Shown here: positions 17,403-62,289 of the stretch, piece after piece | Layout of the letters: each line of letters opens with the position of its first letter | Numbering within the stretch: the first letter of the stretch is position 1 | Source: Lachnospiraceae bacterium | GTDB lineage: Bacteria > Bacillota > Clostridia > Lachnospirales > Lachnospiraceae | Assembly (NCBI GenBank): GCA_017526985.1 | Contig: JAFXQR010000072.1 | Span: forward strand, 2,128-66,127 | DNA length: 64,000 nucleotides | Direction of reading: 5' to 3' | Translations under genes and position numbers: made by a program | The notes under the pieces: generated by a model | Seen by the model: the letters and a program-made list of their open reading frames with translations, nothing else | What the model was told of the DNA's origin: nothing | Database searches by the model: none

Positions 17403-17465
17403 GTTACATATCCTCTCAGAAACTGTTCATAAATATTTTTACAGTTTTCCCGGTTCGTTACCAGC

Positions 17466-33065: not shown

Positions 33066-33286
33066 AATCGATTTCCTCCTTATACATGGTCTGAATCTGT
33101 CGTTTTCTGTTTCTGTTGAATCCACTATAGCAACCTAAGTGCAAGAAAAGTGCAAGCATTTCGGCTATTTTTGAAAAATATAAAAATTTTTTGAGCCATG
33201 GTTGACATATGCAGATCGTCTGTTATAATTATTTTGATAATATGAGTGTCAAGTGTTACCGCCAACAGCCAAAGGAGGGCAGAACT

Positions 33287-41403: not shown

Positions 41404-41445
41404 AGTATATAACCTCAATAACAATTTCCGTATTTTTTACGGAAG
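41404..41445 (-). promoter_or_regulatory. Shared promoter architecture, copy 4: CTTCCGT-AAAAAAT-ACGGAAA, N15, TATACT (gene orientation)
   Basis: Read directly from the sequence; same layout as 53732, 58690 and 61928. Confidence 0.6.
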
Positions 41446-41691
41446 ACAAATATCCGCTCCGAATCCGGATTAGCTTTAACAGAAGCGTTTAAAATCTTTT
41501 TGCAGCAAACTTTGAATGTTCAAACTCTGCCTCTGTTTACTTCTTCCGAAACCAAAAGCATTATAGAAGAGCAGGCAAAAAACTTTTTTGGCAAAACTCG
41601 ACAATGGAATCAAGTCTACTGAAACGGAAGGCCGGATCTCCGAAGAAGAGATGTGGAAGGAGTTTGGCAACAACGAATGAAACGTTCTATC

Positions 41692-43830
41692 CTATAATTC
41701 GTCCAATAGATTACGCTGACTATCCCATATTAATTCTCTCATCTTTTTTATTTCTGGTATCTTTGAGATATAAGCATGTGCACTATTATTCCGCATTTCT
41801 GTAATTGTCCTAATCAAGGGCGCATACTTTTTTAACTTTCCTGTATAATTCCTGATAATATAACCAGCCGAGCCAAGAGATCTGCAATGATCTTTAAGCT
41901 GTTCATTTTTTGCTTCTCTATATTCCTCTGATTTTTCAAGATAGTTCCATATGCTTTCCTCATATACCCGTGCATACTCAACCAAAACCGGAGCACAATC
42001 TATCATGTCATTCTCTTTAAATACATTGTATATCTGCTCCGCCGATGCCAGGTATTTTAAGGCTTTATCTGTCAAATTCGGATATCTGTCTGATGCTTTT
42101 TTCAGTTCTTTCTTAAATCCTTCTTGATCTTTTGTTTGAACAACCTTTTGTATCTTCGAAATAACAGAATTCATTTTATCTTTTATCGATGTTGTTTCCC
42201 ACATTTCATCTGTTATTTCTATACACTCATCAATAATCTGACTTGATACTAAGTCGTTATACCACTGATTTTGAACTTCAACCATCCTTCTAATCTTATT
42301 TTCACGATCTTCCAGTTGCTTCTGTATTATATTTTTTTCTTTTCCGGCTTGTAGTCCTATCTTATATAGTTTTTCCTGCTCTTGAATAGATACAAGAACT
42401 GCATTCTTCTCCTGTGCTTCTTTCATCTGTGAATATTTTTCATATACACAATAGGCCTCTGCATACAAATCCATCATTTTGAGTGTTTCTATCATCTTTA
42501 AATATAATTCCTTCAACACAATCCTTGATGGTCTTTTTAATGAAGGAAGAAATAATGGCCCCTGAAACTTTTCATTCTTTTTTATATCTTTTTCGACCGT
42601 TTCTATAGCCCATTCATATACATCTTTGGCTTTATCATATTTCTTCTGATTCAAAAATATCGCCCCAAGAGCTTGCATTTTAAACGCATCCGGACGAATC
42701 GCTATTGATGCAATACCAGCTTGTTCTGCCTTTTCAAACTCTCTTCTCTGTTCCCATATTCTAGACATCGCATATAATATAAGATCATTATCTGCGGATA
42801 TTGTTTTCGAATACTGGCATGCCTCTTCTATTTCATACATCTCAATCAATGCAATCAGTCTTAGCGCCTGATATTCATATTTGAGTTCTTGCGGGCTATT
42901 TTCATATTCCATAAGATGATTATCTTTTGCATCATCTAACCTTTTCAGAGTTCTTTTTAGTTCTCCATGATCTCCAGAAAACATTATTGCACTTAGTTTC
43001 TCACAGGCGAGAAAGAAATAATTATAGAAATTTGTATTTTTTATCGTCACATATTCAAAAAGTGACTCATACAGGAGTATTGTTCTTGAAATATTGTTTT
43101 CCACAAATGTAGTTGCATAAGTGAGCAATTCCGTGTAATTGTATGATTTTTTATTTTCTAGAAACAACTCATAGTACCGCTCAAATTCATCCGGATTCTT
43201 ATATATCTCTATCTTAAATAGTTCTATTAATCTTTCTTCAAAATACACATCTCCCAATTCCGAACCAACAAACCAGTTATTATTTGCCTCCCACGGTTTA
43301 TACGATCTTTCTGCCATAAATTTCATATTGTGCTTTGCTTTTATCCGACATGCTTCCCATACATTTTTGCACAATATAAATGTACACAAAAGCACCTGCC
43401 AGGCGCCCGTCTTGGATCTTATCTCCAATTCTCGACTACTGATTTGGCAGTTATCCGATTTCTCAGCAAATTTTATCGCTTTACTAAATTCATCTATCTT
43501 ATACCTGCTCCCAGCGTGTTTCTTTATCGCAACATTAAAATTAGCCACTGCCAAAAGTGAATATGTTGCTGGCTGTAATGTCTCATCGTCTTCCCAGCAT
43601 GCAATACTGCAAATTTCCATCAAACATATCTCAGCCTCCCGATATTTCTTTTCAGATAAATAAGCAAACGCCGCATCATAGAGCAGATCCGATTTATTCA
43701 AATCATTTCCGGTTAATAATTCCTTATTAATCTTTCCCTTGGCGTTTATCATATCACCGCCAACTCTCTTTTTTGATATGATTGGAATCATCGATTCAAA
43801 ATTATTCAATATTTCGGAATAATTATCCAT
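41692..43830 (-). CDS. Large helical-repeat (TPR-like) protein with a C-terminal HEPN-type Rx4H motif
   Basis: EMRNNSAH at 41776-41793 fits the HEPN RNxxxH signature. Repeat-rich helical N-terminal 500 aa. The start (ATG 43830 or GTG 43839) abuts or overlaps the upstream stop. Confidence 0.55.
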   Translation of the reverse strand: MDNYSEILNNFESMIPIISKKRVGGDMINAKGKINKELLTGNDLNKSDLLYDAAFAYLSEKKYREAEICLMEICSIACWEDDETLQPATYSLLAVANFNVAIKKHAGSRYKIDEFSKAIKFAEKSDNCQISSRELEIRSKTGAWQVLLCTFILCKNVWEACRIKAKHNMKFMAERSYKPWEANNNWFVGSELGDVYFEERLIELFKIEIYKNPDEFERYYELFLENKKSYNYTELLTYATTFVENNISRTILLYESLFEYVTIKNTNFYNYFFLACEKLSAIMFSGDHGELKRTLKRLDDAKDNHLMEYENSPQELKYEYQALRLIALIEMYEIEEACQYSKTISADNDLILYAMSRIWEQRREFEKAEQAGIASIAIRPDAFKMQALGAIFLNQKKYDKAKDVYEWAIETVEKDIKKNEKFQGPLFLPSLKRPSRIVLKELYLKMIETLKMMDLYAEAYCVYEKYSQMKEAQEKNAVLVSIQEQEKLYKIGLQAGKEKNIIQKQLEDRENKIRRMVEVQNQWYNDLVSSQIIDECIEITDEMWETTSIKDKMNSVISKIQKVVQTKDQEGFKKELKKASDRYPNLTDKALKYLASAEQIYNVFKENDMIDCAPVLVEYARVYEESIWNYLEKSEEYREAKNEQLKDHCRSLGSAGYIIRNYTGKLKKYAPLIRTITEMRNNSAHAYISKIPEIKKMRELIWDSQRNLLDEL

Positions 43831-43835
43831 ACAAA

Positions 43836-44822
43836 TCACCCATCTTTCCGGTCCGGCATTAACATATCAAACATCGAAATCTGTTGGTCATACTGTACCA
43901 AGCGTTTCTGATCCGTAGCATCTTTCACCTCTTCCCCCGGATTGATCGTATCACAAAGTATCGGAGATTTCGGATCATATTTCGCCATAGACTTTTTAAC
44001 ACTTTCCGGGCTATAGTTTGCATAACAATAAATACACCCGTTACTGCAGGTATTGTGACAGCCGATTTCTTTACTGGGCATACATTTGCAATCATTTCTT
44101 TGCGCTGCATCTTTCAGATTCTTCTTCGTATCCTTGATCTTTCCACCGGTAAGTCTTTCCACCAGCGCCTTATCGATGCAAGCATTATGGTCAATCCCCA
44201 AATCTTCCAGATCGATCTTTTCGGCACATGTAGCCACTTTCATATTGTTTGCACCGGCGATCTCTCTTATCCGGATTGCCATATCCCGCATCTCTTCATC
44301 TGAAGGATAATATATTCCCATATCGTCCAAGGTCTTCTTTATCTTAAAATAATCATCCACGAAACTGAATACACATTTTTCCGTATATCCTTTCAGACAA
44401 CCTGCGATCTCTTCAAATGCTCTGTAATGCCAATCAAGCGGATATCGATTATTGATCATGATAGGATCATATCTCCAGATCACTCGCTCCGGTCCTATCT
44501 TATCCGCAAGTTGCTGAAATGCCGGAATCAGCACTTTTTTCTTATCCGGTAGATTTCGCTCTATATCTTTTCCATATCCGGTTAAGGTAAACTGAAAATA
44601 ATAACAATAGTCTTTCAATTCATCCAGCCTGGGGATCAACGGCACCGGATTCTTCGTCCAGAAAACAATGCAATCTACCAGTTCCGGATCCAAAGAGATC
44701 CTGGATAACTGTTTTGCATTCATCGGATTACGCACTACGGCATAGCCTTCTTTGACTCTGTTTAGGAACCATTCTGTAAAATATGCAGGTATATCCGTCC
44801 TGCGACTGGCACTGATGATCAT
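43836..44822 (-). CDS. DUF1848-like protein with a C-terminal Cys cluster
   Basis: N-terminus MIISASRRTDIPAYFTEWFLNR...VFWTKNP...WRYDP and C-terminus CKCMPSKEIGCHNTCSNGCIYCYAN match my recollection of PF08902. AGGAG RBS before the ATG at 44822. Confidence 0.6.
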   Translation of the reverse strand: MIISASRRTDIPAYFTEWFLNRVKEGYAVVRNPMNAKQLSRISLDPELVDCIVFWTKNPVPLIPRLDELKDYCYYFQFTLTGYGKDIERNLPDKKKVLIPAFQQLADKIGPERVIWRYDPIMINNRYPLDWHYRAFEEIAGCLKGYTEKCVFSFVDDYFKIKKTLDDMGIYYPSDEEMRDMAIRIREIAGANNMKVATCAEKIDLEDLGIDHNACIDKALVERLTGGKIKDTKKNLKDAAQRNDCKCMPSKEIGCHNTCSNGCIYCYANYSPESVKKSMAKYDPKSPILCDTINPGEEVKDATDQKRLVQYDQQISMFDMLMPDRKDG

Positions 44823-44845
44823 TATCTCTTCTCCTATCGTATAGT

Positions 44846-45877
44846 TTATCGATGAATCAATTTTATTATTTGAAATAAGCTTGTTGTTGCTCGCGTAACA
44901 CATTTTCGCTGTTTACATGCATGCAATATGCTACTCAAACTATCTCTCACCTCAGATATTTCTCTTTCAACTTCAAAATCATTGTTCAGTTCCTCTATTC
45001 TTGGACAATTAAAAAAACTTCCTTGTTGTATTTTTTTAAATGCATAGCATGGCCAATACTCCTCATCTGCTATATTCTTCAAAGGTCCATCTTCTCCGAT
45101 ATATTCATCCGAAAGATCATTCTCTACTAGAAATCTATTATCATAGTTAATAGCCTCCACAATACGCTGAGCGATAGTTTTCATTGTCTGTTTTTCTCTA
45201 TACTGGCTATGCGAATGTGAAATAATTATATGATGATCTCTATCCGCTTGTATGGCATCAGCATTATTTCTTATCATTTCAACCAGCCGGTTTAAATATA
45301 TATCCGGAAGTTCATTCAAGATTTTAGGAAAAATAATAGTATTATAGCTGCATATCCATTTTGTATTTTCAATAAAATCAAGTATATCTGAAACGCCTTG
45401 TGGAAAATCATCTCTTCCTGGATATCTCATCCCCAGGTAGCCGTTTCCAAATGTGTATGCTCTTTCCATTGCATTATCGTTATTCGGAGAAAACTGTATC
45501 CCCCATCTTACCATATCCATCCCAACATATCTTAAAGATAATTCTGGATTCACCTGGTTTTTAGCGTATGCTAACGCCCATGCATCAATACAAGAACCAC
45601 ACCCCAAAGAAGTAACACCAAAAATATTTTGTAGCGGATCATAATCATCTATAACCATTTTGTATAGAAAAGCATATTCAAAAGCATACGCATACCCATA
45701 TCTCAATAAATATACTGCATTAAACAATTCATCATCATAATGAAAATCTTCTTCTTGAGCATTTCGATAATTAATACCAAGAACAGTTTGCAGTTCTTCA
45801 TCCGGCTCTTGATTTCTAATATGTTCTCTCACTATACTAGCACAATTTCTCATCACTTCATTGAAATATTCAATCAT
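44846..45877 (-). CDS. Hypothetical protein, possible class I SAM-dependent methyltransferase fold
   Basis: Motif I-like VTSLGCGSCID followed about 25 aa later by a motif II-like RYVGMDM; GGGAGA RBS. Confidence 0.4.
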   Translation of the reverse strand: MIEYFNEVMRNCASIVREHIRNQEPDEELQTVLGINYRNAQEEDFHYDDELFNAVYLLRYGYAYAFEYAFLYKMVIDDYDPLQNIFGVTSLGCGSCIDAWALAYAKNQVNPELSLRYVGMDMVRWGIQFSPNNDNAMERAYTFGNGYLGMRYPGRDDFPQGVSDILDFIENTKWICSYNTIIFPKILNELPDIYLNRLVEMIRNNADAIQADRDHHIIISHSHSQYREKQTMKTIAQRIVEAINYDNRFLVENDLSDEYIGEDGPLKNIADEEYWPCYAFKKIQQGSFFNCPRIEELNNDFEVEREISEVRDSLSSILHACKQRKCVTRATTSLFQIIKLIHR

Positions 45878-46234
45878 CTTTTTTCTCCCTTCTTGATTAC
45901 CCTTTATGATCTAATAGTTTATACTCTTTTTTCTGCTCCCTATAACATTCCTTCTGCCTATAAACCATATAAAAATCTTTATATTTCTGTCTTTAAGATG
46001 GTTTTCATCAAGAAAAATATATTTAATGAATTCAGATATGCCTCTATACAAAATATCTGTGTTCTATTTGTCATTAGACTATATCAAAACAGATAAGGTC
46101 TTTATTAATCTCTTATTCCGATTATCATTTCTTTTCGCATATATTATATCATCTTCTATATAAATACATCAAATGACATATTCACCAAAAAGGCCACAAC
46201 AATATTATAAACAATAACAATCACCTCAAATCTT

Positions 46235-46726
46235 TTATATAAACTTCTCCCGATTCAGGTTGCACTCGTGACAAACCACGCAGGCGTTTTCCCATATCCT
46301 AGGTTTCTCTGGATCTTTGCGACGCAATACTCCTTCCTGCAGATCACATCCACACCCGACACATTTCCCGTTCTGCTTCCGGATCAGTTGTTGCTTCTGA
46401 TACGCATAATTCTCCAGTTCCTTACAGATCCCTTCTTCGACAAACTTCAGTTTCTTCTTATGGTCCGGAGCTAAATGGAGCTTGTCCAACTCCGGCAGCA
46501 TATCTTCTTTTATCGTATTGCATTCCGGATGGGTTCGGACATAATTGTCTTTTGACTCGATATGATCCACCAGCTGTTTTTGCTCAACCGCAGACAGATA
46601 TTCTTCTGACCATTTGTATATCGCTCTCGGATAAACATGATCTCTGTTGGAACTCCCTTCGATACTCTTCCCGCATATGGCACAGATCTGCTGCTTTCTC
46701 TTATTCAATTCATTCATCTGACTCAT
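46235..46726 (-). CDS. HNH endonuclease
   Basis: CAICG...DHVYPRAIY...HPECNTIKED plus a second CxxC...CxxC pair; GGAGGTG RBS. Confidence 0.8.
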   Translation of the reverse strand: MSQMNELNKRKQQICAICGKSIEGSSNRDHVYPRAIYKWSEEYLSAVEQKQLVDHIESKDNYVRTHPECNTIKEDMLPELDKLHLAPDHKKKLKFVEEGICKELENYAYQKQQLIRKQNGKCVGCGCDLQEGVLRRKDPEKPRIWENACVVCHECNLNREKFI

Positions 46727-46805
46727 ACGATCACCTCCGTTTCTATTTTCATATAAAATCAGTCCTTCTATGTATACACATTTTTCTCTGCCTGCATCTC
46801 CCGGA

Positions 46806-47564
46806 TCAAAACGAAACCGCTCTTACCCCGGTAAGCGACTCCAGACTCACAGATAGCAAAAAATTATGCAGAAACATATCAACAAGCTCCATGGATGTGA
46901 AGCAAACATGCTCAATATCATCATAGCAACCATTATGCATGTATTTCAATACCTCACCGCAGGACAAATGCCCGGTATCCCGGATATACTCGCCATCCTT
47001 CCCGGGAAAAGCACAGAAACTGATCACTTCATGTCCAAGCCGCACGATATTATGCGTATCGCACATCGGCAATTGATCGGCCTTATGGAATCCGACACTT
47101 CCAGCCTCTTTATCCAGCCACCGATTCAGATACGAACCCTTCTGACCTGCCATCACGCTGTTGTGGTATACGATATACTCACCGCTTCCGATCACATCCA
47201 GGTTGATCGTAAGTTTTGGACGATACTTGGAAAAGTGCATTGTGCTTCCGTAAAACCCGCTCTCTTCCCTGTCCAGAAAAACAAAACAGACATTAGGATC
47301 ACCGGCCCGCTCCTCACACAGATGCAACAACACAGCGCAGGAAGAACCATTATCATTGGCTCCGCATGATCCCGGCACAATATCATAGTGTGCACAGATC
47401 GTCACCAGCGCGTTTTTCGGATCACCAACCATCAGGTTGACCGCATTTTCATTCCGCTCGATCCTGTAAAAAATGCGCTTTCTTGCAAGTATGCGTCTGA
47501 TCTGTTTCCGACGCTCTTCTGTCGTACAATAGGAGATCTCCATTAATGATTCTTTTAAATCCAT
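46806..47564 (-). CDS. M28-family metallopeptidase-like protein (short, 252 aa)
   Basis: Zn-ligand pattern AHYD...ANDNGSS...DREESGFYGS...NLDVIG...MHNGCYD; GGAGGT RBS. Confidence 0.6.
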   Translation of the reverse strand: MDLKESLMEISYCTTEERRKQIRRILARKRIFYRIERNENAVNLMVGDPKNALVTICAHYDIVPGSCGANDNGSSCAVLLHLCEERAGDPNVCFVFLDREESGFYGSTMHFSKYRPKLTINLDVIGSGEYIVYHNSVMAGQKGSYLNRWLDKEAGSVGFHKADQLPMCDTHNIVRLGHEVISFCAFPGKDGEYIRDTGHLSCGEVLKYMHNGCYDDIEHVCFTSMELVDMFLHNFLLSVSLESLTGVRAVSF

Positions 47565-47855
47565 TTTACCTATACCTCCATATTTTTATTTTCCGGATGA
47601 TCTGCACTTAACAGATCATCTGCATGTGACCATACGTAACCACAGCATCTGTTTCCGTACTTTTTTGCAAATAATACAAAAACACCTATCTGCTCTTTTC
47701 CTATTCCTGATATTCGGATAACTTTCTCGATCAGAACCGTTTTGATTTATACACGATTCCCTTTGATACTTTTAGAATTACCGCTCCTTTTTGAGCGTGC
47801 AGAACATATATCGACAACCTGAAAATAAACTTTAGTCTGTTTTAAAAATATTTTC

Positions 47856-47891
47856 AGAAAAATTTTCCCACGGCATTTTACCGTGGGAAAA
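47856..47891 (-). terminator. Terminator hairpin ending the four-gene RecQ-PRTase operon
   Basis: Perfect 11-bp arms TTTTCCCACGG/CCGTGGGAAAA immediately after the stop at 47896, followed by AAAATTTTT on the minus strand. Confidence 0.55.
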
Positions 47892-47895
47892 GTAT

Positions 47896-48978
47896 TTATT
47901 TAATCATTTTTGCTCTTTGTAACACTGCTTCCTTATTCAATACCTTCTTATTGGCAAACATATTTTGCGGTTTCCCGGATGCCTTCTGCAGTTTCCCGAT
48001 CCCCTTCGATTTTCGTTCCTCAAAGTATGCCCGATACTCTGTAAAGCTTTTTTCTCTCCGGACATTCTCTAACTGCGTTTCCGTTATAAACTTCTTATTA
48101 TACTTCGCATAGCAATCCGTAAAATAACCGTTCTTTACCGTATTTTCAAACTCCCGTAGCGCCTGTTCAACCGTTTGAAATATTTTGATCCTTGTTTCCA
48201 GTATATTATCATACTCCGGCGCTTTATCAGATAATTCATACTTTTTTGAAGCATTATCTTCATCCAGCATAAAATCCTGCAGGTCAGCTAAAGTATGGTA
48301 TAGGACACAGGCATAGCACTGATCCCTGTTTTCCGGATCAATACTGCCTCCCACGATCCTCTGTACACTATCACTTATGCGATCGGTTCCGATCAGATAC
48401 ACTCCCGCTCCGGTTTTCGGATCAATACGCAATGGAATAAAACATGAGCTGAGTTTCATTGCATAAATTCCCTGATACAGATCATCCATACGGTCGATCT
48501 CTTCTTCGGTAACATTCCGTCCGGTTGGCACTCTGGCTGTATCATCTCCTGCAACACCTCCGTCTGCCGAACCGCCCAGATTCCTCACCAGGGTATTTAA
48601 TAATTCAATATCATCGATATTCTTTTTTTCTTTTTGCTCGATGGCAGCTCTTTTCTTTTCTGCTTCTTCTCTCTTTTTCTCTTCCGCCTCCCGATCCTTC
48701 CTGTCTTGGGGATCCTTTCGTTTTCCGGAAGCTTCTTCCTGCAAGCGCTTTTTTTCGCGCTTACGCCGCAAAACCCCGTGACGCCGCAAAAAGTCATCGA
48801 CCACTTCTTCTGTCACATAGTCTGCTGTTTTTCCCTTTTTCTCATAGTAACTGCACAAACACACATACAGAATACTCTCTTCACGCTTATTCTTAGCACT
48901 CTTTTCCGTATACTCTTCTTCCAGAAACGAGTACATTTCCCTTTGGTTTTTTATTTCTATCCCGTTTGGCAAGATCAT
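47896..48978 (-). CDS. Hypothetical protein (360 aa) with a central K/E/R-rich segment
   Basis: ATGA start/stop overlap with the upstream gene; no motif recognised. Confidence 0.6.
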   Translation of the reverse strand: MILPNGIEIKNQREMYSFLEEEYTEKSAKNKREESILYVCLCSYYEKKGKTADYVTEEVVDDFLRRHGVLRRKREKKRLQEEASGKRKDPQDRKDREAEEKKREEAEKKRAAIEQKEKKNIDDIELLNTLVRNLGGSADGGVAGDDTARVPTGRNVTEEEIDRMDDLYQGIYAMKLSSCFIPLRIDPKTGAGVYLIGTDRISDSVQRIVGGSIDPENRDQCYACVLYHTLADLQDFMLDEDNASKKYELSDKAPEYDNILETRIKIFQTVEQALREFENTVKNGYFTDCYAKYNKKFITETQLENVRREKSFTEYRAYFEERKSKGIGKLQKASGKPQNMFANKKVLNKEAVLQRAKMIK

Positions 48979-50540: not shown

Positions 50541-50567
50541 AACCGGTCTTTTCCTCCCCTAAGCTTC

Positions 50568-51584: not shown

Positions 51585-51608
51585 TTTTTCTTTGTCTATT
51601 TTACACGA

Positions 51609-53681: not shown

Positions 53682-53731
53682 TTCAAATTCCTCCTTATGT
53701 TGAGTTTGTTGAGTTGTTTTTATTTACCAGT

Positions 53732-53773
53732 AGTTTATCATGTGTGATCATTTTTCCGTAATTTTCACGGAAA
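53732..53773 (-). promoter_or_regulatory. Shared promoter architecture, copy 1: TTTCCGT-GAAAATT-ACGGAAA, N15, TAAACT (gene orientation)
   Basis: Read directly; the -10-like hexamer ends about 50 nt upstream of the RecQ-PRTase start. Confidence 0.6.
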
Positions 53774-53894
53774 ACGGATTGTTCATCCCTTAATGCCAGC
53801 AAATACCTGCCTTGACGCCTACGATTTGATCTAAATAAACCCTGCAAAAGGATTTATTCCCTTGCAGGGTATTTTTTGACTCTGATAATGTTTC

Positions 53895-55454
53895 CTACAC
53901 CTTTGTTGTCCACTTGGTGCAGTCCCAGACCTGCGTGGCCAGGCTTTGATAAAACTCCGGCTCATGGCAGACCATCAGGATGCTGCCCTTGTACTCTTTC
54001 AGGGCACGCAGCAGTTCGTCTTTGGCGTCCACATCCAGGTGGTTCGTCGGCTCGTCCAGTACCAGCAGGTTCGATTCTTTGTTAATGAGCTTGCAAAGAC
54101 GCACCTTGGCCTGCTCGCCACCGGAAAGTACCTTGCACTTGCTCTCGATGTGCTTTGTGGTCAGGCCGCATTTTGCCAGGGCAGATCGTACCTCATACTG
54201 TGTAAAGCCCAGGAACTCATTCCAGATCTCCTGCATACAGGTGGTATCGATATTCGGAGACATCTCCTGTTCAAAGTAACCGATCTCCAGATTCTCACCC
54301 AGTTCCACTTTACCTTTGATCGCCGGGATCAGTCCCAAAATGCTTTTTAATAATGTGGATTTTCCGATGCCGTTCGCGCCGGTAAGGACGATGCAGCTCC
54401 CTCGTTCCATCGTTACGTTCAGAGGCGACGACAGCGGCTCGTCATAACCGATCACCAGATCTTTGGTCTCGAATAAGATCTTGCTCGGCGTCTTCGCTAC
54501 CTTGAAATGAAACTCCGGCTTGGGCTTCTCCTGGATCTTTTCGATGAGATCCATATTGTCAAGCTTCTTCTGACGGGACATTGCCATATTTCTGGTGGCA
54601 ACTCTGGCTTTGTTTCTCGCCACGAAGTCCTTCAGTTCCGCGATCTCCTGCTGCTGCTTGTTATACGCCGCCTCCCGCTGCGCCTTCTTCACCTCATAGA
54701 CTTCCTGGAATTTATCATAGTCCCCTACATAACGGTCCAGACTGTGATAGTTCCCATCCATGTGATATACGATGTTGATCACGCTGTTCAAAAACGGGAT
54801 ATCATGCGAGATCAGGATAAACGCATTCTCATAATCCTGCAGGTATTTCTTCAGCCACTCGATGTGCTCCGCATCCAGATAGTTGGTCGGCTCGTCCAGC
54901 AACAGGATGTCCGGCTTTTCGAGCAGCAGCTTGCCCAGTAAGATCTTGGTACGCTGTCCGCCGGAAAGCTCTGTCACATCACGATCCAGTCCCAGATCCA
55001 GCAGTCCCAATGCTCTTGCCACTTCTTCCACCTTGGCATCGATCATATAGAAATCATGATTGGTCAGCAGATCCTGGATCGTACCGGTCTCTTCCATATA
55101 CTCATTCATCTCTTCTTCGGTACAGTCCGCCATCTTTTCGTACAGCTCATTCATCTTTGCTTCCATGGCAAAGAGCGGCTCAAACGCGCTGGCCAGCACA
55201 TCCCGGATCGTCATTCCCTGCTGCAATACCGCATGCTGATCCAGATACCCTGCCTTTACATTCTTTACCCATTCAATGGTACCTTCATCCGGCATCAGCT
55301 TGCCCGTGATGATATTCATAAAGGTGGACTTGCCTTCGCCGTTGGCACCCACCAGACCGATATGTTCTCCGGCCAGCAGACGGAACGATACATCCTCAAA
55401 GATCGCCCGGTCACCAAAGCCGTGTGTCAAATGCTCTACATTTAAAATACTCAT
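53895..55454 (-). CDS. ABC-F family ATPase (two ABC domains, no TM domain)
   Basis: Two Walker A motifs (GANGEGKST, GANGIGKST) and two signature motifs (LSGGQ, LSGGE) with an inter-domain linker. Confidence 0.9.
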   Translation of the reverse strand: MSILNVEHLTHGFGDRAIFEDVSFRLLAGEHIGLVGANGEGKSTFMNIITGKLMPDEGTIEWVKNVKAGYLDQHAVLQQGMTIRDVLASAFEPLFAMEAKMNELYEKMADCTEEEMNEYMEETGTIQDLLTNHDFYMIDAKVEEVARALGLLDLGLDRDVTELSGGQRTKILLGKLLLEKPDILLLDEPTNYLDAEHIEWLKKYLQDYENAFILISHDIPFLNSVINIVYHMDGNYHSLDRYVGDYDKFQEVYEVKKAQREAAYNKQQQEIAELKDFVARNKARVATRNMAMSRQKKLDNMDLIEKIQEKPKPEFHFKVAKTPSKILFETKDLVIGYDEPLSSPLNVTMERGSCIVLTGANGIGKSTLLKSILGLIPAIKGKVELGENLEIGYFEQEMSPNIDTTCMQEIWNEFLGFTQYEVRSALAKCGLTTKHIESKCKVLSGGEQAKVRLCKLINKESNLLVLDEPTNHLDVDAKDELLRALKEYKGSILMVCHEPEFYQSLATQVWDCTKWTTKV

Positions 55455-55469
55455 GTTATATTTCTTCTC

Positions 55470-56432
55470 CTATAAAATCTCGTGTACTCCGGCCAGATAT
55501 TCCGCCACATTGCCGGACTTGCGGATCTTCTTTAATGCCTTTTCCTGATCCGGAAACAGACCGCCCATGGATGCCCACAGTTCCTTCATATGGAACAGCA
55601 GCGGCATCTCTCCGTCAAATAAATCTTTGTAAGAAGTAAAGATGCGGTCATGATAGGCGCGCAGTTCTTCCTTCGTGGGCGCACCTGCATTCTCATTCTC
55701 AGAAAGATCCGACTGATACAGCTCTCTGGCCAGTGCCGGGTTCCGCAGCATCCCGCGTCCCAGCATCACCGCGCAGACCGTATTTTTGCAATGGTCTTTG
55801 ATGTATTGCATTTTCTCCCGGTAATCCTGCACCGTGTAGATATCGCCATTGTAGACCACCGGCATTTTGCATTTGTCCAATGCGACGCAAAAATCATCCA
55901 TGCGTACAGTGCCTTTGTACTGGTCCGTCTGCAGCCGCGGATGGATGGTCAGTTCCGTGATAGGGTATTGGTTATAAATTCCCAACAGCCTTGCAAATTC
56001 TTCCGGATCTTCCATCCCAAGCCTTGTCTTTACCGAGATCTTACATTTTGCTTTTGCAAAGATCTCCTCCAGAAAGCGATCATAAGCCTCGGTGTCTTTT
56101 AAGATCCCGGAGCCTTTTCCGTGACCGACCACTGTTTTGGACGGACAGCCCGCATTCAGATTGATCTCTTCATAACCGTAGGTATCGCAGATCTCTTCGG
56201 ATAAGGTCAGAAAGTCTTCCGCTTTATTGGTCAGGATCTGCGGGACCAGGGGAATGCCCGGATTATTTTCCGGCAACAACCCCCGCCGCTCTTTGCTTGC
56301 CATTCCCTTTTTGGGGCGCGGTGCAATAAAGGGCGTATAGTATTTCGTGATCCCGTCTCCGAAAAAATCATGCACGGCATTTCGATAGATGTATCCGGTG
56401 ATCCCCTCCATCGGGGCCAGGTAAAACCGCAT
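55470..56432 (-). CDS. tRNA-dihydrouridine synthase family protein
   Basis: LAPMEGITG...NLNAGCP motifs. Confidence 0.85.
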   Translation of the reverse strand: MRFYLAPMEGITGYIYRNAVHDFFGDGITKYYTPFIAPRPKKGMASKERRGLLPENNPGIPLVPQILTNKAEDFLTLSEEICDTYGYEEINLNAGCPSKTVVGHGKGSGILKDTEAYDRFLEEIFAKAKCKISVKTRLGMEDPEEFARLLGIYNQYPITELTIHPRLQTDQYKGTVRMDDFCVALDKCKMPVVYNGDIYTVQDYREKMQYIKDHCKNTVCAVMLGRGMLRNPALARELYQSDLSENENAGAPTKEELRAYHDRIFTSYKDLFDGEMPLLFHMKELWASMGGLFPDQEKALKKIRKSGNVAEYLAGVHEIL

Positions 56433-56547
56433 CTTTTATATCTCCCGTTTTTTCGTCTGCATTCTATCTTATCAGATTTTATCGGAAAAGACAAAGGGGC
56501 AGCCCTCCCCATAGGGAAGAGCGCCTCTTTGCTCGAAAGGAGATATA

Positions 56548-57126
56548 TCAAATATGGTCAATGATCTTGGTTGCGATGCCGAACTCCAACGCCTGCTGCG
56601 CCGTCAGGAAGGTGTCTTCTTTGGTCTTTTCGTAGACCTCTTCGAGGCTGCGGCCGCTGCGGTCTGCGATGATACCGCCGGTCACCTCGCGCAGTTCCAG
56701 CAGACGTGCGGCTTCTTTTTCCAGCTCCAGTGCCTTACGACTGCCGGAGAGGCCTGCGATCAGCGGATCGTGGATCATGATCTTGGTGTGGGGCAGCATC
56801 TCACGCTTGTCCCCGGCCAGAAACAGGATGGATCCCATACTGGCTGCAGTGCCGATGCATACGGTGCGGATGGGGCACTTCATCAGGCGCAGCGTGTCAT
56901 AAGCTGCCAGACCGCTCACCACCTCGCCGCCCGGCGTATTGATGTAGAGCGTGATCTCCGCGTCCGGATCTTCCGCCTCCAGACACAGCAGGTACTGGAT
57001 CAGCGTATTACAGCTCTCAGAGTTGACCTCTTCGGTGAAGAAGAGTTTGCGCTCCTTTAAGAGCATGCTTTCCGGGGTGATGCTGTCGATGCCTCTGGAT
57101 GTTTCTTTCAAAAAATAACCGTTCAT
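56548..57126 (-). CDS. clpP: ClpP-family serine protease subunit (divergent paralogue)
   Basis: LYINTPGGEV, catalytic Ser in GTAASMGS, His in IMIHDP. Confidence 0.75.
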   Translation of the reverse strand: MNGYFLKETSRGIDSITPESMLLKERKLFFTEEVNSESCNTLIQYLLCLEAEDPDAEITLYINTPGGEVVSGLAAYDTLRLMKCPIRTVCIGTAASMGSILFLAGDKREMLPHTKIMIHDPLIAGLSGSRKALELEKEAARLLELREVTGGIIADRSGRSLEEVYEKTKEDTFLTAQQALEFGIATKIIDHI

Positions 57127-57225
57127 AGTCGTGTTCTCCTTTACTTTTGTATATGGTTAATGTTATTGTTTCCGAAAGGTTTGAGATGCAGGGCCGCAAT
57201 ATCTACAGCCCTGCACCGGTACTGC

Positions 57226-58647
57226 TTACGAAGCCTGTGCCTGGTTCGGTTCCGGATCCAGGTACTCCGCCGCATAGGGCTCCACCTTTGCTACCTGTCT
57301 GGCGTGCGAACCGCGTTCAAAGAACCAGGCATCCGTCAGCGGCATTTCCAGGATGGTCTCCGGCAGCTTTCCGGACTTGGTGGCAAAGAAGCGCGCCGTC
57401 TCCACATCCTGCCCGCCCAGGTAGAGCATATGGTCGCAGTTGTTGATGATGGTCTGCGCCTGCCCTTCCTTGTACATACCGCTCAGCTGAGAGATGCTCT
57501 GCAGGATCACTGTCGCGTAGATCTCGCGGGAGCGGATGTTGGAGATGATCTTGTCGAAGTTCGGAATGCAGACATTCGACGCGAAGTCATCCAGCACGAT
57601 GCGTACCGGTACTGCCAGGCGACCGTCTTCGTGGAAATCCGCCTCCATACACAGGCTCTTAAACAGCTGCGTATAGAACAGATTCACCAGGTTATCCATG
57701 GAACGGTCCGTATCGCTGATGTTGACGAACAGTACCGTCTTCTGGCGTCCCAGTTCCGGGAAGAGGATGGTGCTGCGGCGGTTGAACATCTTAGCGTTGG
57801 AGCTGTACTCAAAGGGAGACAGCGCATTTGCCACAAACTGCGTGATGGACGACCAGCACTTCTCCGCCTTGAAATTGCAGCTATACTTATGGTACATACG
57901 CACCGCAAAGCTGTCGGGATTTTCGGCTTCCAGTTCCGTAAAGAAGGTAACGCCCATCCAGCCGCGCTCCTGGCCGTTTCTCGCCGCCTGCTCTGTCAGC
58001 TCATCATAGAGTCTGCAGACCGAGCCCATATGCTGCTCCTTTCTCGGCAGCACTTCCAGGCAGTACGCCATCAGACTGACGATCACGTTGCGGGCCGAAT
58101 CTCCCCAGAAGGTGCTGTCGTTGTCCACATCGTCCGGGACCAGAACCTTAACGATGCTCATCAGGTCCTCTTCGCGGTAACCGTACTTCTTCTCGCGGAT
58201 CTCACCAAAGGGTGTCTGCTTCACCTCGTCTTCCCAGGTACGCTCGATGTAGTCCATCGGGTTGTACGCCGCCGACTGCTCCGGACGGACAAAGTTGAAG
58301 TTTTCCACACGGAAGCCCCGTCTGCGCAGATATCCGCCGTAGTTCTTGTACAACTGGCTCTTGGCGTCAACCACTACCAGGCTGTGCTGCAGATCCCTTA
58401 AATTCGGGACCACATAGCCGCCGGTCTTTCCGGATCCTGCCGTACCCACCAGCAGGTCATTATTGTTGAGTTTGGTCGCACGAGGGTTGTTGGATACCGT
58501 TACGCCCTTTGCAAAGACACGGCTGCCCAGTTCCTCCAGGCTCATCTGCTTGTTTTCGGTTGTGTTTACTGTGATGTTCTTCATGGCATTAGTCTCCTTT
58601 CCGCCATTTGCTGTGTTGCCTGCATTCATCAGCTCGCTTCTCATCAT
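57226..58647 (-). CDS. VirD4/TraG-like type IV coupling protein ATPase domain without N-terminal TM segments
   Basis: Walker A GTAGSGKTGG, VLDDFASN, and ILQSISQLSGMYKEGQAQTIINNCDHMLYLGG, a T4CP-like stretch as I recall. Alternative in-frame start at MKNITV also has an RBS. Confidence 0.7.
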   Translation of the reverse strand: MMRSELMNAGNTANGGKETNAMKNITVNTTENKQMSLEELGSRVFAKGVTVSNNPRATKLNNNDLLVGTAGSGKTGGYVVPNLRDLQHSLVVVDAKSQLYKNYGGYLRRRGFRVENFNFVRPEQSAAYNPMDYIERTWEDEVKQTPFGEIREKKYGYREEDLMSIVKVLVPDDVDNDSTFWGDSARNVIVSLMAYCLEVLPRKEQHMGSVCRLYDELTEQAARNGQERGWMGVTFFTELEAENPDSFAVRMYHKYSCNFKAEKCWSSITQFVANALSPFEYSSNAKMFNRRSTILFPELGRQKTVLFVNISDTDRSMDNLVNLFYTQLFKSLCMEADFHEDGRLAVPVRIVLDDFASNVCIPNFDKIISNIRSREIYATVILQSISQLSGMYKEGQAQTIINNCDHMLYLGGQDVETARFFATKSGKLPETILEMPLTDAWFFERGSHARQVAKVEPYAAEYLDPEPNQAQAS

Positions 58648-58689
58648 AATTTTGACCTCCTTTTGGTTTGCTTCGTTTACGTTGTACTC

Positions 58690-58731
58690 ATAGTAACATC
58701 GCTTGTTTTGTTTCCGTGATTTTTACGGAAA
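58690..58731 (-). promoter_or_regulatory. Shared promoter architecture, copy 2: TTTCCGT-AAAAATC-ACGGAAA, N15, TACTAT (gene orientation)
   Basis: Read directly; TGT immediately precedes the TACTAT hexamer (extended -10-like). Confidence 0.6.
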
Positions 58732-59149
58732 ACGGCGGATGCTACGCCCTGCTTTGTTTTCAGGGCGCAAAAACCCTACACAAAGCATTTCCTCTGATAT
58801 TAAATTCCTATGAAGTTTATTCAGTTGTAATTGCTGTTTTTTGGCGTTTCGCCTTTTTGTATGGAATTGAATTCCGGACTTTCGTCACTTCGGACTGATT
58901 TGTTGGCTTTTTGCCTTTTATAGAAATCTGCTTCGTCTTTTTGCGACGCTGCAGAAAGTATTTCGACGCGATCTTATGAAATCTTTAGAGCTTTCTCAAA
59001 ATATATTTTAATAAATTTTTGACAGTTTTCAAAGAACGCTGCATACCGGGATTTCGTTTGCTTTATCCATACGCTTTCCTTATCGGTATGATTCTATTAT
59101 AGCGCGTTCTCTGAAAAAGTCATTTAACTACAGGTATAACTTGCACGGC

Positions 59150-59863
59150 CTATTTCGCATTTTTCACCTTCAGGCTCTTTAAGTATACCTTCTGTTCTGC
59201 GGTGATGCGATAGCTCTCCACGGATTTTTGGATCGCCTTATTGTGTGTCCACGGATCCAGTTTCTTTTCTTCGATATAAGGAAGGACCGCTTCATACTGC
59301 TTGGCCAGCGCTGTCGCAAAATACCATGCGATCATCATATTGATATAGTATTCTTCCGAGCGGACGGACGCCACCATTTTGGGATATTCCGGAGCAAAAT
59401 CATCGTCCAGAAAATGCTCCATCAGCATCCCGATCGCAAAACGGACCGTATAGGTCTCATCGCTTTTGAACCAGTGTTTGATCTGCCCAAGCAATGCCGC
59501 TTTGTGTTTCTGAAAAACCTTCGGTGACATCTGATCGCAGGTTGCCCAGTTATCTACATATGGAAGAAAGCGGCACAATTCCTCCATACACTTTTCATAA
59601 TCCCTGATACCGGATACGAGAAAGGCATGCAACTGATTTTCATCAAAATACCGGTGCGGCAGATCCTGCAGAAACGCTTCATACTTCCCCTCTTTCAGCA
59701 GTTCCTTTGCGTAAGTTCTCAGCGCCGGCGTGCGCACACCGATCACGGAATCCGTAGCAACCGTTGGGATCAGTTTTGCCTGAAAGTCACGATATTTTGT
59801 ATCCTGCATGGAAAATAATTTTTCGCGGATCTTTTCGATTTCCTGTTGGCTCTGTTTTTTCAT
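59150..59863 (-). CDS. DNA alkylation repair protein (AlkC/AlkD-like HEAT-repeat family)
   Basis: FQAKLIPT...IGVRTPALR...YVDNWATCD pattern. Start at MKKQSQ; the listed ORF extends upstream through repeat family 2. Confidence 0.75.
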   Translation of the reverse strand: MKKQSQQEIEKIREKLFSMQDTKYRDFQAKLIPTVATDSVIGVRTPALRTYAKELLKEGKYEAFLQDLPHRYFDENQLHAFLVSGIRDYEKCMEELCRFLPYVDNWATCDQMSPKVFQKHKAALLGQIKHWFKSDETYTVRFAIGMLMEHFLDDDFAPEYPKMVASVRSEEYYINMMIAWYFATALAKQYEAVLPYIEEKKLDPWTHNKAIQKSVESYRITAEQKVYLKSLKVKNAK

Positions 59864-59883
59864 CCCTGAAGCTCCATTAAGTT

Positions 59884-59929
59884 TTCTTGCCTTCCCCTTG
59901 AGGGGAAGGTGGCCGAAGGCCGGATGAGG
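59884..59929 (-). repeat. 46-nt hairpin repeat family 2, second copy (inverted relative to 34664-34709)
   Basis: Identical to copy 1 except for two complementary changes at the base of the loop (C..G versus T..A). Confidence 0.75.
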
Positions 59930-59942
59930 TGTTCTTGCTGCA

Positions 59943-60812
59943 TCAACCTGCTTGCCTATCTTTCCACATCGTGTACTGCCATCTGGCAATCGCAGTTCCG
60001 ATGATGATCACATAACCGATGATACTTAAGGTATGCGGTGTCTCTCCCAAAAAGAGTATTCCCAGGATCGCCGCAAAGATCACCTGCGTATAATCAAAGA
60101 CCGAGATCTCCTTGGCCGGAGCAAACTTATAGGCTGTGGTGATACCAAACTGTCCGAGCGTTGCCGCAACCCCCGCCAGGATCAGGAACATCCACTGTTT
60201 TGCACTCATCGGATGAAAATCCAGGATCAAAAACGGCGCCGTCACCAGACATGAAAATGTAGAGAAACACATCACGATCACCGAAGTGCGTTCCCCTTTA
60301 CCGCCAAGCTTTCGGACAAATACATACGCGGTCCCGGCACCGAAACCACCGTACAATCCGATCAATGCCGGAGCGATGGAAAACTCACCGCCCGGTCGGA
60401 TGATAAACAGCGCACCGGTAAAAGCCAGCACCGTAGCAATGATATCCACCAGATTTGGCACTTCCTTCAGGATCACGATGGATAAAAGGATCGCAAAAAA
60501 CGGCGACAGTTTATTCAGCATATTGGCATCCGCGATCCCCAGACGATCGATGGCATAAAAATTACAGATCAACCCGCTGGTACCGAAGATACAGCGACAC
60601 GCGATATCACCGAAGCATCCTTTTTTGATATGAAACTTCTCCTTGCTCTTCATCAGCGGAATGATGGTGACCAGTGCCGCGATAAAATTTCGGAAAAAGG
60701 CTTTCTGCATCGTCGGCAGATCCCCGGACAACCTTACAAAAAAGGTCATCAGGGAAAAGCCGAATGCTGCTGCCAGAATACACAAGATTGCTTTGATCTT
60801 TGCACTTTTCAT
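59943..60812 (-). CDS. DMT superfamily (EamA-like) transporter
   Basis: 10-TM profile with two EamA-like halves. Confidence 0.85.
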   Translation of the reverse strand: MKSAKIKAILCILAAAFGFSLMTFFVRLSGDLPTMQKAFFRNFIAALVTIIPLMKSKEKFHIKKGCFGDIACRCIFGTSGLICNFYAIDRLGIADANMLNKLSPFFAILLSIVILKEVPNLVDIIATVLAFTGALFIIRPGGEFSIAPALIGLYGGFGAGTAYVFVRKLGGKGERTSVIVMCFSTFSCLVTAPFLILDFHPMSAKQWMFLILAGVAATLGQFGITTAYKFAPAKEISVFDYTQVIFAAILGILFLGETPHTLSIIGYVIIIGTAIARWQYTMWKDRQAG

Positions 60813-60910
60813 CTTCTCACAAATCCCGATTCTCTATATTTTCAACACCTTATCATAGCAGAATTTGTAAGAAAACAAAACTGTTTTATATGCAGATCTT
60901 TCGCAATCCT

Positions 60911-61861
60911 TTACATCGTAGAATAACTGAAGACCCTGCCTAATTGATTTTGCCTTGCCGTCGCCACACGCATCGGGCCGTAAAACATCAGCAGATTGAC
61001 CCAGTTTGCTGCCAGACGGACCTCGATATCACTGGGCGGCCACGATGACGATAACTGGAACGGGATCTGTTCGATGGTCTCGTCATAATGACGCCTAAAA
61101 TTCCGACGGATCGGATACAACTCTACCCAGTTATGGTTCGCATCCATCAGGATCTCACAGCAGCGCACCAGCACTTCCGAGATAGTCGGATACCGGTCGT
61201 ATTTTTCCTTCCACAGATCCACATCATATTTGAAGCAGACATTGTACGCTTCCCAATACCCCATCAGCATGCTGTCGCAATAGTATCGCTCTTCCGGCAG
61301 TGGCAGACTCACCAGATACTGGAAATAATCCACGACAGAAAGCTGCAGAAAAGGCAGCACCTTGCGCTTATGATCCGGGCTGATGCTCTTCTTTTTTGGC
61401 GCCTCTCCTTTCTTTTCTGCGCTATGACCTTCCTTCTCCTTTTCCTTCGGTCTGCGTACTTTGTAAGCATCATACGCTCTCAGATCCCCCACGGCCAAAA
61501 AAGACAGCCAGGCGAGTTGCATTCCCCTCAGCTCCCGGCCAAAGTGCTGCAGCACCATCTGCGCATACGATGTTTCTTTCGTAACATCAAAATCTTCGGA
61601 TAACATTTCTGCCACTTTCTCCGGATCATTTATAAAAGGACTGACGACATTTCGTATTGGCTGCGCCAGGAAATTATGGATCACCTTCTCTACATACCCG
61701 TCGGTATGGACACGCCCCTGCCTGGTGAGTTTCAGGATCTCCGACAGATTCTTGCGACCCTCACCATCATCCGACTCCTCAAATGCATCCGGGCAGAATG
61801 TTTCTGCGGCTCTTCCCATTTCGTCCTCAAAGTTCCTGTCCATCATGTTTCTCTCGTCCAT
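60911..61861 (-). CDS. Hypothetical protein (316 aa)
   Basis: AGGAGG RBS 7 nt before the ATG at 61861 (MDERNMM); no motif recognised. Confidence 0.6.
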   Translation of the reverse strand: MDERNMMDRNFEDEMGRAAETFCPDAFEESDDGEGRKNLSEILKLTRQGRVHTDGYVEKVIHNFLAQPIRNVVSPFINDPEKVAEMLSEDFDVTKETSYAQMVLQHFGRELRGMQLAWLSFLAVGDLRAYDAYKVRRPKEKEKEGHSAEKKGEAPKKKSISPDHKRKVLPFLQLSVVDYFQYLVSLPLPEERYYCDSMLMGYWEAYNVCFKYDVDLWKEKYDRYPTISEVLVRCCEILMDANHNWVELYPIRRNFRRHYDETIEQIPFQLSSSWPPSDIEVRLAANWVNLLMFYGPMRVATARQNQLGRVFSYSTM

Positions 61862-61927
61862 ATCCGTACCTCCTTCTTGTTGCCGGTTACCATCTGCCAT
61901 TACCATCTTTTACTTCTATCAAAAACA

Positions 61928-61968
61928 ATATTAACGCACATCTTTTTCTTTCCGTGATTTTTACGGAT
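61928..61968 (-). promoter_or_regulatory. Shared promoter architecture, copy 3: ATCCGT-AAAAATC-ACGGAAA, N15, TAATAT (gene orientation)
   Basis: Read directly; the distal half-site is one position weaker. Confidence 0.55.
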
Positions 61969-62289
61969 CATGGTTTCTCAACAGACAAAAACTGCGGAAG
62001 GTTAAAAACCCTCCGCAGCAGGTGCCTTCGAACCGAACCTCCGGCACCGCAGTTTCCTGCAGGTTTTCAAGCAGAACATAAAGGGTTACCCCTTTATTAA
62101 AAGGAAAGAAAAATTATCCCCAACTACGCAACTCTGAACTCTAAGGCATAACAGATAACAAATAACCTCTGATTAGTCACAATAAACATTCACATCCCAA
62201 GTTGATCAGCCAGCGAAAGTTCTGCTTCGGATATTCTTTTTTTATACAGCCAACGCCATCCAAAATGCGTTGACTGTATGTGTGCACGG

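Follow-up and report, generated by a model that had tools for sequence, protein, structure and literature searches.

The 64,000-nucleotide (nt) window analysed here (67.5-kb contig JAFXQR010000072.1 of assembly GCA_017526985.1, positions 2,128 to 66,127) comes from the metagenome-assembled genome of an uncultured rumen/gut Lachnospiraceae bacterium (proteins MBR3516046–MBR3516073, locus tags IKO10_). Between 41 and 62 kb its minus strand carries a gene for an orphan protein of 316 amino acids (aa), a gene for a VirD4-like ATPase paired with a paralogue of ClpP, an operon that opens with a PsyrTA defence pair, and a gene for a 201-aa putative nuclease. Ahead of each lies one copy of a palindrome, (T)TCCGT-N7-ACGGAAA, and beyond each copy, on the side of the gene, a −10-like hexamer. 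The four sites, numbered by coordinate and written in the direction of transcription, are as follows; the scores in bits are those of the position-weight matrix described below.

41425–41445, minus strand: palindrome of site 1, CTTCCGT-AAAAAAT-ACGGAAA (35.9 bits)
41404–41409, minus strand: −10-like hexamer of site 1, TATACT, 15 nt after the palindrome
53753–53773, minus strand: palindrome of site 2, TTTCCGT-GAAAATT-ACGGAAA (36.1 bits)
53732–53737, minus strand: −10-like hexamer of site 2, TAAACT, preceded by TGa (extended −10)
58711–58731, minus strand: palindrome of site 3, TTTCCGT-AAAAATC-ACGGAAA (38.5 bits)
58690–58695, minus strand: −10-like hexamer of site 3, TACTAT, preceded by TGt (extended −10)
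61949–61969, minus strand: palindrome of site 4, GATCCGT-AAAAATC-ACGGAAA, its distal flank degenerate (35.8 bits)
61928–61933, minus strand: −10-like hexamer of site 4, TAATAT

How often would such palindromes be expected in a stretch of this composition? Allowing at most one mismatch, TTCCGT-N7-ACGGAA is matched four times in the window, against a mean of 0.12 and a maximum of 1 in 100 dinucleotide-preserving shuffles. At up to three mismatches the additional matches are all weak and unlike the four sites. With a matrix built from eight sites, these four and four from relatives, the window sites score 35.8–38.5 bits. The next-best other position in the window reaches 13.9 bits, reverse-strand readings of three of the same palindromes (14.8–24.7 bits) being excluded. 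All four sites are intergenic and lie 42–92 nt upstream of start codons. An earlier note on this DNA had quoted the four sequences, which are exact on the minus strand, together with a fifth, half-degenerate copy at 47652–47658. We discard the latter: it is a lone ACGGAAA, a 7-mer expected by chance about eight times per window, with a distal arm that matches at 3 of 7 positions, no TAnnnT at +15 and a matrix score below 12. The note had also seen an upstream extension, CCGTTTTCCGT, in two copies. It is indeed present at sites 2 and 3 (53774–53783 and 58732–58741, minus strand), where it adds one more CCGT, 3 nt ahead of the distal arm, and is found neither at sites 1 and 4 nor in the orthologues. 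The extra CCGT may be an auxiliary half-site or a coincidence.

The distance from palindrome to hexamer is exact. A TAnnnT hexamer begins 15 nt past the proximal arm at all four sites on the gene side, as had been claimed, and at none of the four at offset 15 on the other side. The background frequency of TAnnnT in the window is 0.0143 per position, and the probability of finding it four times out of four at one fixed offset is p ~4e-8. A chance origin of the four sites is excluded by the motif count and this phasing together. The hexamers match TATAAT at four to five of the six positions, and two of the four (sites 2 and 3) have the TGn of an extended −10. In the −35 region, at spacings of 16–18 nt, no hexamer of the window sites exceeds two matches out of six to TTGACA. 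Unaided, these would be weak sigma-A promoters, devoid of a −35 and with TGn in only half of them.

Is this arrangement kept in other genomes? We compared the window with relatives, that is, with contigs encoding homologues of the VirD4-like protein; the percentages given for them are protein identities. Three relatives contribute four further sites:

L167 (80%): gTTCCGT-AGTTTCT-ACGGAta, 15 nt, TAAGAT, at the promoter of the VirD4-like/ClpP unit
L168 (GCA_024712465.1; 68%): TGTCCGT-AAAATTA-ACGGAcg, 15 nt, TACAAT, at the promoter of the VirD4-like/ClpP unit
L169 (GCA_024699045.1; 57%): ttGCCGT-AGAAAGC-ACGAAAG, 15 nt, TATAGT, ahead of clpP and the gene of the VirD4-like protein
L169, a further site: CTGCCGT-AGATTGT-ACGGAGG, 15 nt, TATTAT, in front of an unrelated 164-aa gene, followed by the gene of a 4923-aa transglutaminase-core protein

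The sites are thus conserved at orthologous and at non-orthologous promoters of relatives. The 15-nt gap is identical in all eight promoters from the four genomes (the window, L167, L168 and L169). All eight also lack a −35, and TGn is present in three and missing from five. The core conserved over the eight sites is CCGT-N7-ACG(G)A. An alignment of the promoters leaves CCGT, ACG.A and the TA of the −10 as the sole invariant positions, and the flanks bear no similarity to one another; these are therefore independent sites rather than copies of one promoter fragment. The outer positions of the arms vary, and do so without compensating changes. It is the sequence of the arms that is conserved and not their pairing, which points to recognition by a protein rather than to an RNA stem. 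From centre to centre, the CGT and ACG cores are separated by 10 bp, one helical turn. Both cores therefore face the same side of the DNA, as they should if a helix-turn-helix dimer binds them. Read in the direction of transcription, the spacer of six of the eight sites is rich in A, and one might speculate that it bends the DNA or is contacted by the C-terminal domain of the polymerase alpha subunit.

If transcription starts about 7 nt after the −10, an assumption that makes all positions relative to the start predicted ones, then the proximal arm occupies about −34 to −28, the spacer −41 to −35 and the distal arm −48 to −42. This puts the centre of the dyad at about −38 (−37 to −39.5, depending on the start site), some 26 nt ahead of the −10 hexamer's first base.

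The earlier note had proposed to ask whether orthologous loci keep the site. They do in L167, L168 and L169, and do not in a second relative at 80%, L178/L179, where the aligned promoter segment resembles a decayed copy. The motif is absent from the relatives at 52%, L170 (GCA_000621425.1) and L176, from the copies of the VirD4-like/ClpP pair that reside in mobile elements, and from the region upstream of the nearest PsyrT homologues, L174 and L175 (57–60% identity). It follows from the last of these that the motif does not travel with PsyrTA. A palindrome of another kind, TCCGGAAAATTTCCGGA, stands at 8625–8641 of L176, upstream of a 160-aa gene, clpP and the VirD4-like gene; its geometry is likewise 5-N7-5, and its inner arm position is G/C instead of T/A. 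We considered it as a specificity variant of the operator and set it aside, the identical sequence being a terminator between convergent genes in L011.

How far beyond these relatives does the element extend? In the public genome collection the pattern TTTCCGT-N7-ACGGAAA-N15-TANNNT matches at least 117 loci. Nearly all of the 24 Clostridia-type matches checked fall inside long open reading frames (ORFs); other matches are in conserved coding sequence of unrelated phyla, for example Acidobacteriota, and no related regulon was found among the matches listed. A pattern with an A-rich spacer and the −10 gave 17 loci in metagenomes, three of them from the organism of the window (L122, L131, L134) and the rest coding or due to chance. 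The organism occurs in sequencing run SRR31077520 and in related runs. The viral collections yielded only chance-level matches that either lack a phased −10 or lie inside ORFs, and by this comparison the motif is not phage-associated. Since the element is absent from the more distant relatives, the PsyrT homologues and the viral contigs, and since the matches listed by the collection-wide scans came from this organism again or were due to chance, we regard it, on sequence grounds, as lineage-specific and as part of the host's regulatory repertoire rather than of PsyrTA or of phages. Searches of the full-text literature, whether for the half-sites or for motifs of defence regulons, gave no relevant result, and we know of no LexA, CcpA, Rex, CtsR, CIRCE, ComK or sigma consensus that the motif matches. 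The Firmicutes LexA box, CGAAC-N4-GTTCG, is not contained in the four site sequences. We conclude that this is a real, conserved and previously undescribed cis-regulatory element.

Which genes would the four sites control? The terminator scan found strong terminators at only three places in the region. With these and the spacing of the genes, the interval from 41 to 62 kb is best read as four consecutive minus-strand transcription units, each starting at a copy of the motif:

61991–62019, minus strand: strong intrinsic terminator just upstream of site 4, a transcription-unit boundary
59150–61861, minus strand: unit at site 4, with the 316-aa orphan gene (60911–61861), EamA (59943–60812) and AlkD-like (59150–59989) genes, co-transcription probable
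53895–58647, minus strand: probable unit at site 3, with the genes of the VirD4-like ATPase (57226–58647), ClpP paralogue (56548–57126), Dus (55470–56432) and ABC-F (53895–55454)
53839–53870, minus strand: strong intrinsic terminator after ABC-F, just upstream of site 2
47896–53681, minus strand: operon at site 2, with PsyrT (51609–53681), PsyrA (50568–51584), a 521-aa gene (48975–50540) and a 360-aa gene (47896–48978)
47863–47891, both directions: bidirectional terminator ending the PsyrTA operon
40706–41311, minus strand: 201-aa gene at site 1, after a low-GC island

The ABC-F, Dus, ClpP, AlkD-like and EamA genes had been taken for ordinary genes that lie between the sites and lack the motif. 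Gene spacing and the positions of the terminators place them, instead, probably inside motif-led transcription units, co-transcribed with the genes at the head of each. For ClpP there is in addition its conserved partnership with the VirD4-like gene in relatives.

Two minor features adjoin these promoters. The 420-nt intergenic region upstream of site 3 (58790–59150) contains good sigma-70-like promoters at 59123–59096 and 59032–59005 and several short hairpins of the GGCG-AAA-CGCC type. Part of it is conserved with L178 (9563–10001). It could encode a small RNA, or it could be a long leader through which the VirD4-like gene has a second promoter farther away; Rfam contains no match to it, and Rfam and tRNA scans of the whole window likewise gave none. 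A 65-aa ORF at 41476–41673, beside site 1, looks non-coding.

The identity of the genes bears out the earlier description of the targets as defence-like and DNA-handling. At site 2 the pair described there as RecQ-PRTase and DprA-like is, by sequence, a PsyrTA (RqlHI) defence/toxin–antitoxin system. PsyrT, a RecQ-like helicase fused to a PRTase, matches its PADLOC profile over the full length at 760.8 bits, with Pfam domains in agreement, and the adjoining DprA-like PsyrA matches at 234.6 bits. The acidic 521-aa and 360-aa proteins encoded after them (47896–50540) have no match in Pfam, NCBIfam, PADLOC or PHROGs. In L174 and L175, whose PsyrT homologues are the nearest, only the two-gene form occurs, and the four genes together may be a variant of PsyrTA.

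The 201-aa protein at site 1, which also fits that description, is a member of an unnamed family that forms about 271 clusters at 50% identity. Four residues, E69, D89, D98 and K100, are conserved in at least 90% of the aligned members (K100 in all of them), in a pattern like that of PD-(D/E)xK enzymes, and elsewhere the domain is fused to Toprim, to UvrD helicase or to N6/N4 DNA methylase. An alignment-based AlphaFold model has a predicted local distance difference test score (pLDDT) of 96; a single-sequence model, at pLDDT 42, was unusable. Searched against the PDB, the good model has no significant neighbour, its weak top matches being mostly PD-(D/E)xK nucleases, and a profile search of PDB sequences also returned nothing. 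From the residue pattern, the fusions and the model we take the protein to be a putative nuclease.

At site 3 the 473-aa ATPase matches NCBIfam NF045973, the VirD4-like conjugal transfer protein of the CD1115 family, with 276.2 bits against a cutoff of 250. No hydrophobic N-terminal or transmembrane segment is visible in its translation. The family is large in Lachnospiraceae. The VirD4-like/ClpP pair is chromosomal in L167, L169, L170, L176 and L178 and is carried by serine-recombinase mobile elements in L171 and L173; in L169, L170 and L176 more uncharacterised genes follow it. In a tblastn search of plasmids and phages the relatives of the VirD4-like protein reach at most 36% identity, and the plasmid matches, at most 35%, are on conjugative plasmids. 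The VirD4-like family originates from conjugative elements, and we regard the pair as a domesticated module. Among 5.8 billion sequences the 316-aa protein at site 4 (60911–61861) has homologues only within its own cluster at 90% identity, and there are therefore no orthologous promoters with which to compare its own.

When gene order is set against that of L167 and L178, two apparent insertions into a conserved backbone become visible, each with an operator. The comparison suggests that one is the 316-aa orphan, placed ahead of an EamA–AlkD pair that in L178 lacks the orphan and directly follows asnA, and that the other is a block comprising ABC-F, PsyrTA, the low-GC island, the 201-aa gene and a VWA gene.

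The low-GC island (41692–47564, minus strand) lies between the terminator at 47863–47891 and site 1. Its GC content is 35–41%, against about 47–54% nearby, and it encodes a 715-aa TPR protein (41692–43839), a DUF1848 protein, a 343-aa uncharacterised protein, an HNH protein and an M28-like peptidase. The island was probably acquired horizontally and could be an undescribed defence module. Elsewhere in the window, a 1749-aa ORF (27876–33125, minus strand) lies where the AT skew is strong (−0.37 to −0.40). Four consecutive genes for GNAT acetyltransferases (16920–19297, minus strand) stand downstream, on that strand, of a metallo-beta-lactamase-fold gene (16074–16901) and of a gene (15400–16047) that fuses YjbR to the DNA-binding domain of O6-methylguanine methyltransferase.

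If the four sites are operators, how might they work? With moderate confidence, and from the sequence of the promoters, we lean towards a single dimeric factor of this lineage, probably of the helix-turn-helix type, for which all four are the operators and which is most likely an activator that replaces the −35. A dimeric regulator placed over the −35 was one of two options in the earlier note, and it has gained from what we find: conservation extends to both arms, the −10 stands at a fixed distance, a −35 is lacking, and the site is kept at orthologous promoters. The dimer would bind the palindrome with its dyad at about −38, upstream of a −10 of sigma-A type, so that the proximal half-site would occupy the place of the missing −35 element. 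Once bound, the factor would recruit or stabilise RNA polymerase, standing in for the contact between sigma region 4 and the −35. Four adjacent units would then be switched on jointly: that of the 201-aa putative nuclease; the PsyrTA operon and the two further genes in it; the unit of the VirD4-like and ClpP genes, in which Dus and ABC-F are probably included; and the unit of the 316-aa orphan, probably with EamA and AlkD-like. The direction of control (activation), the start sites and the extents of the operons are what we infer from this arrangement. We favour activation because all eight promoters lack a −35 and five of the eight lack TGn while their −10s are decent, and because the spacing is exact to the nucleotide across unrelated promoters and genomes.

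Could the bound protein be a repressor instead? A dimeric repressor, such as one of the GntR, PadR, MarR or Fur type or one that originated as a global repressor in a mobile element, might occlude the −35 region and keep toxic or costly genes (the PsyrT toxin, the nuclease, the VirD4-like ATPase) silent until a signal arrives. We consider this the main rival, and less probable than activation. The operator overlaps the core of the promoter, and a repressor operator overlapping the −35 position would look identical in sequence. The targets include a toxin–antitoxin-like defence pair and a gene family of conjugative-element origin, and KorA and KorB, global repressors of IncP plasmids, likewise take fixed positions at promoters. 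With −10s that match TATAAT at four to five positions of six and TGn in three promoters of eight, some basal activity without a −35 is conceivable. Against this, promoters without a −35, most of them without TGn as well, would be very weak in Firmicutes even when derepressed, and a gap of 15 nt held to the single nucleotide across promoters and genomes is more typical of activators that contact RNA polymerase. The CGT-N7-ACG core partly resembles the GT-Nx-AC sites of GntR-type regulators and the Bacillus Zur box of the Fur family, TCGTAAT-N-ATTACGA, with which it shares a CGTA...ACG core and the seven bases between CGT and ACG. The outer positions differ from those of Zur, however, and the inner AAT/ATT is not conserved in the orthologues. 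Boxes of the Fur family keep no fixed distance to the −10, and the targets here, PsyrTA, the VirD4-like ATPase, ClpP and uncharacterised proteins, include no gene of zinc homeostasis or other metal-related function.

Explanations that dispense with a dimeric regulator fare worse. The other option of the earlier note, an unusual sigma factor, would make the proximal ACGGAAA the −35 of an alternative sigma and the symmetry of the palindrome incidental. The fixed spacing to a −10-like element and the lack of a sigma-A −35 would fit. Yet we know of no consensus of SigH, SigB, SigD, the sporulation sigmas or the ECF (extracytoplasmic function) sigmas that the motif matches; the distal CCGT, 21–27 nt from the −10 and of no use to a sigma factor, is invariant in all eight sites, as well conserved as the proximal half-site, and the downstream hexamers obey the sigma-A rule TAnnnT; we think this option unlikely. 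Slightly less probable still is that a site-specific recombinase has its core sites in the 7-N7-7 palindromes, as inverted arms around a 7-bp overlap, marking the junctions at which PsyrTA, the 201-aa gene and the orphan were inserted as cassettes. Core sites of tyrosine recombinases have a similar geometry, and the 316-aa orphan and the block from PsyrTA to the 201-aa gene, which look inserted when compared with L167 and L178, each have a site at the 5′ end. But the sites stand at only one end of each putative cassette, and one is also found at the non-inserted, vertically conserved VirD4-like/ClpP promoter of three other genomes. A phased TAnnnT at 29–92 nt from the start codons is a feature of promoters, and no recombinase gene occurs among the window ORFs scanned against Pfam. 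Least credible of all is that the palindromes are RNA or DNA hairpins, terminating or attenuating read-through from the gene upstream, or a chance repeat. Stems of 5–10 bp can form (−4.9 to −11 kcal/mol), and the related palindrome TCCGGAAAATTTCCGGA does serve as a terminator between the convergent genes of L011. The stems are weak, however, with folding z-scores of −1.6 to −3.0; no U-tract or T-run follows them on either strand, and the terminator scan did not call the sites. True terminators lie just upstream of sites 2 and 4, and in the arms it is the sequence that is conserved and not the pairing. A chance repeat is ruled out by the count of 4 against 0.12 and by the phasing.

Several observations weigh against the activator reading. 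Among about 50 window ORFs scanned with Pfam, the only DNA-binding protein is a 143-aa XRE-family protein (9482–9913), whose gene has no copy of the motif upstream. One close relative at 80%, L178/L179, lacks the site at the orthologous promoter, and the exact-pattern scans of public genome, metagenome and viral collections gave essentially no further convincing sites. The indistinguishability of activator and repressor operators, already noted, belongs here too. Finally, the predicted dyad at about −38 departs from the canonical −41.5 of class II activators, and the gap of 15 nt from the 8 nt counted for DriD, an activator to which we return below.

A bolder version of the activator hypothesis, which we put forward as speculation and think rather doubtful, would make the lineage-specific factor the master switch of an inducible regulon of immunity and DNA stress. 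It would act from TCCGT-N7-ACGGA at about −38 in the manner of DriD and PafBC, in a different register and probably with a protein of a different family. Newly acquired cassettes (PsyrTA, the putative PD-(D/E)xK nuclease, orphans) would be wired in by carrying or evolving the operator, and would be induced together with the domesticated, conjugation-derived VirD4-like/ClpP module.

What, then, is gained from the four sites? To our knowledge little is known of how bacteria control their defence arsenals, and almost nothing for the uncultured Clostridia of gut and rumen. Judged by the promoters, a shared operator appears to co-regulate the PsyrTA operon, the putative nuclease, the orphan gene and the VirD4-like ATPase/ClpP pair, and so links a known defence system with the other three, one of them a conserved module. 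As a clean and conserved operator, phased to the −10 with single-nucleotide precision, it offers an entry point to the regulation of defence genes in these organisms. The operator 21-mer (TTTCCGTAAAAATCACGGAAA) could serve as bait for the regulator in DNA affinity purification sequencing (DAP-seq) or pull-down, and genome scanning could define the regulon. It also allows one to ask whether horizontally acquired defence genes plug into a regulatory circuit of the host.

How does the arrangement compare with known systems? At class II promoters of CRP, FNR and NtcA a palindrome bound by a dimer takes the place of the −35 or overlaps it, a TAnnnT −10 is retained and the phasing is strict (for NtcA, GTA-N8-TAC plus TAN3T). 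The four sites share all three features. They differ in their centre, predicted at about −38 where the canonical one is −41.5, and in having 5-N7-5 symmetry in place of 5-N6-5 or 5-N4-5; no gene of the Crp/Fnr family was identified in the sequence scanned. From the same phylum come the RRNPP/Rgg boxes of Firmicutes, such as the ECom-box of ComR and the PlcR box, in which a palindrome lies just upstream of the −10, the −35 is poor and the regulons are small and lineage-specific. These traits are common to both; sequence and distances differ. No gene for a helix-turn-helix–TPR regulator or its peptide was found, the 715-aa TPR protein at 41692–43839 being without a helix-turn-helix match.

Among regulators of defence, BrxR and CapW, WYL-domain proteins of defence islands, are repressors of a single adjacent operon. 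The DdvS/DdvA pair of ECF sigma and anti-sigma factors is reported to place several defence genes under one transcriptional switch (PMC11506125), a concept that the four sites would share. In each of these cases the regulator is encoded beside the system that it controls; here, by contrast, one site is common to four separate promoters, and no regulator adjoins them.

The closest parallel is DriD of Caulobacter crescentus, a WYL-domain activator of an SOS-independent response to DNA damage, which binds a 7-N7-7 pseudo-palindrome, ATACGAC-N7-GTCGTAT, over the −35 (PMC13004042). In every promoter that it regulates the site is equally far from the −10; these promoters lack a −35, and DriD recruits RNA polymerase to them (PMC13004042). 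The four sites resemble this in the 7-N7-7 geometry over the −35, the constant distance to the −10, the want of a recognisable −35 and the presence of DNA-handling genes among the targets (PMC13004042). There are also differences. The half-site sequences are unrelated and the phyla differ; the gap is 15 nt here, as against about 8 nt counted from the oligonucleotides of that study (PMC13004042), and the predicted dyad lies at about −38 rather than about −31. No WYL-domain gene was seen when some 50 window ORFs were scanned with Pfam, or in the Pfam lists precomputed for L167–L169. DriD is thus the closest documented functional analogue, in the sense that the factor proposed here would work like DriD and not that it belongs with it, because the register differs and no WYL-domain gene is seen in the available sequence. 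The kind of system is a familiar one, a transcription-factor regulon with a palindrome that overlaps the −35, and its type of mechanism is not new. If the factor does activate by replacing the −35 contact, a Firmicute example with a new geometry would join the small set of such activators.

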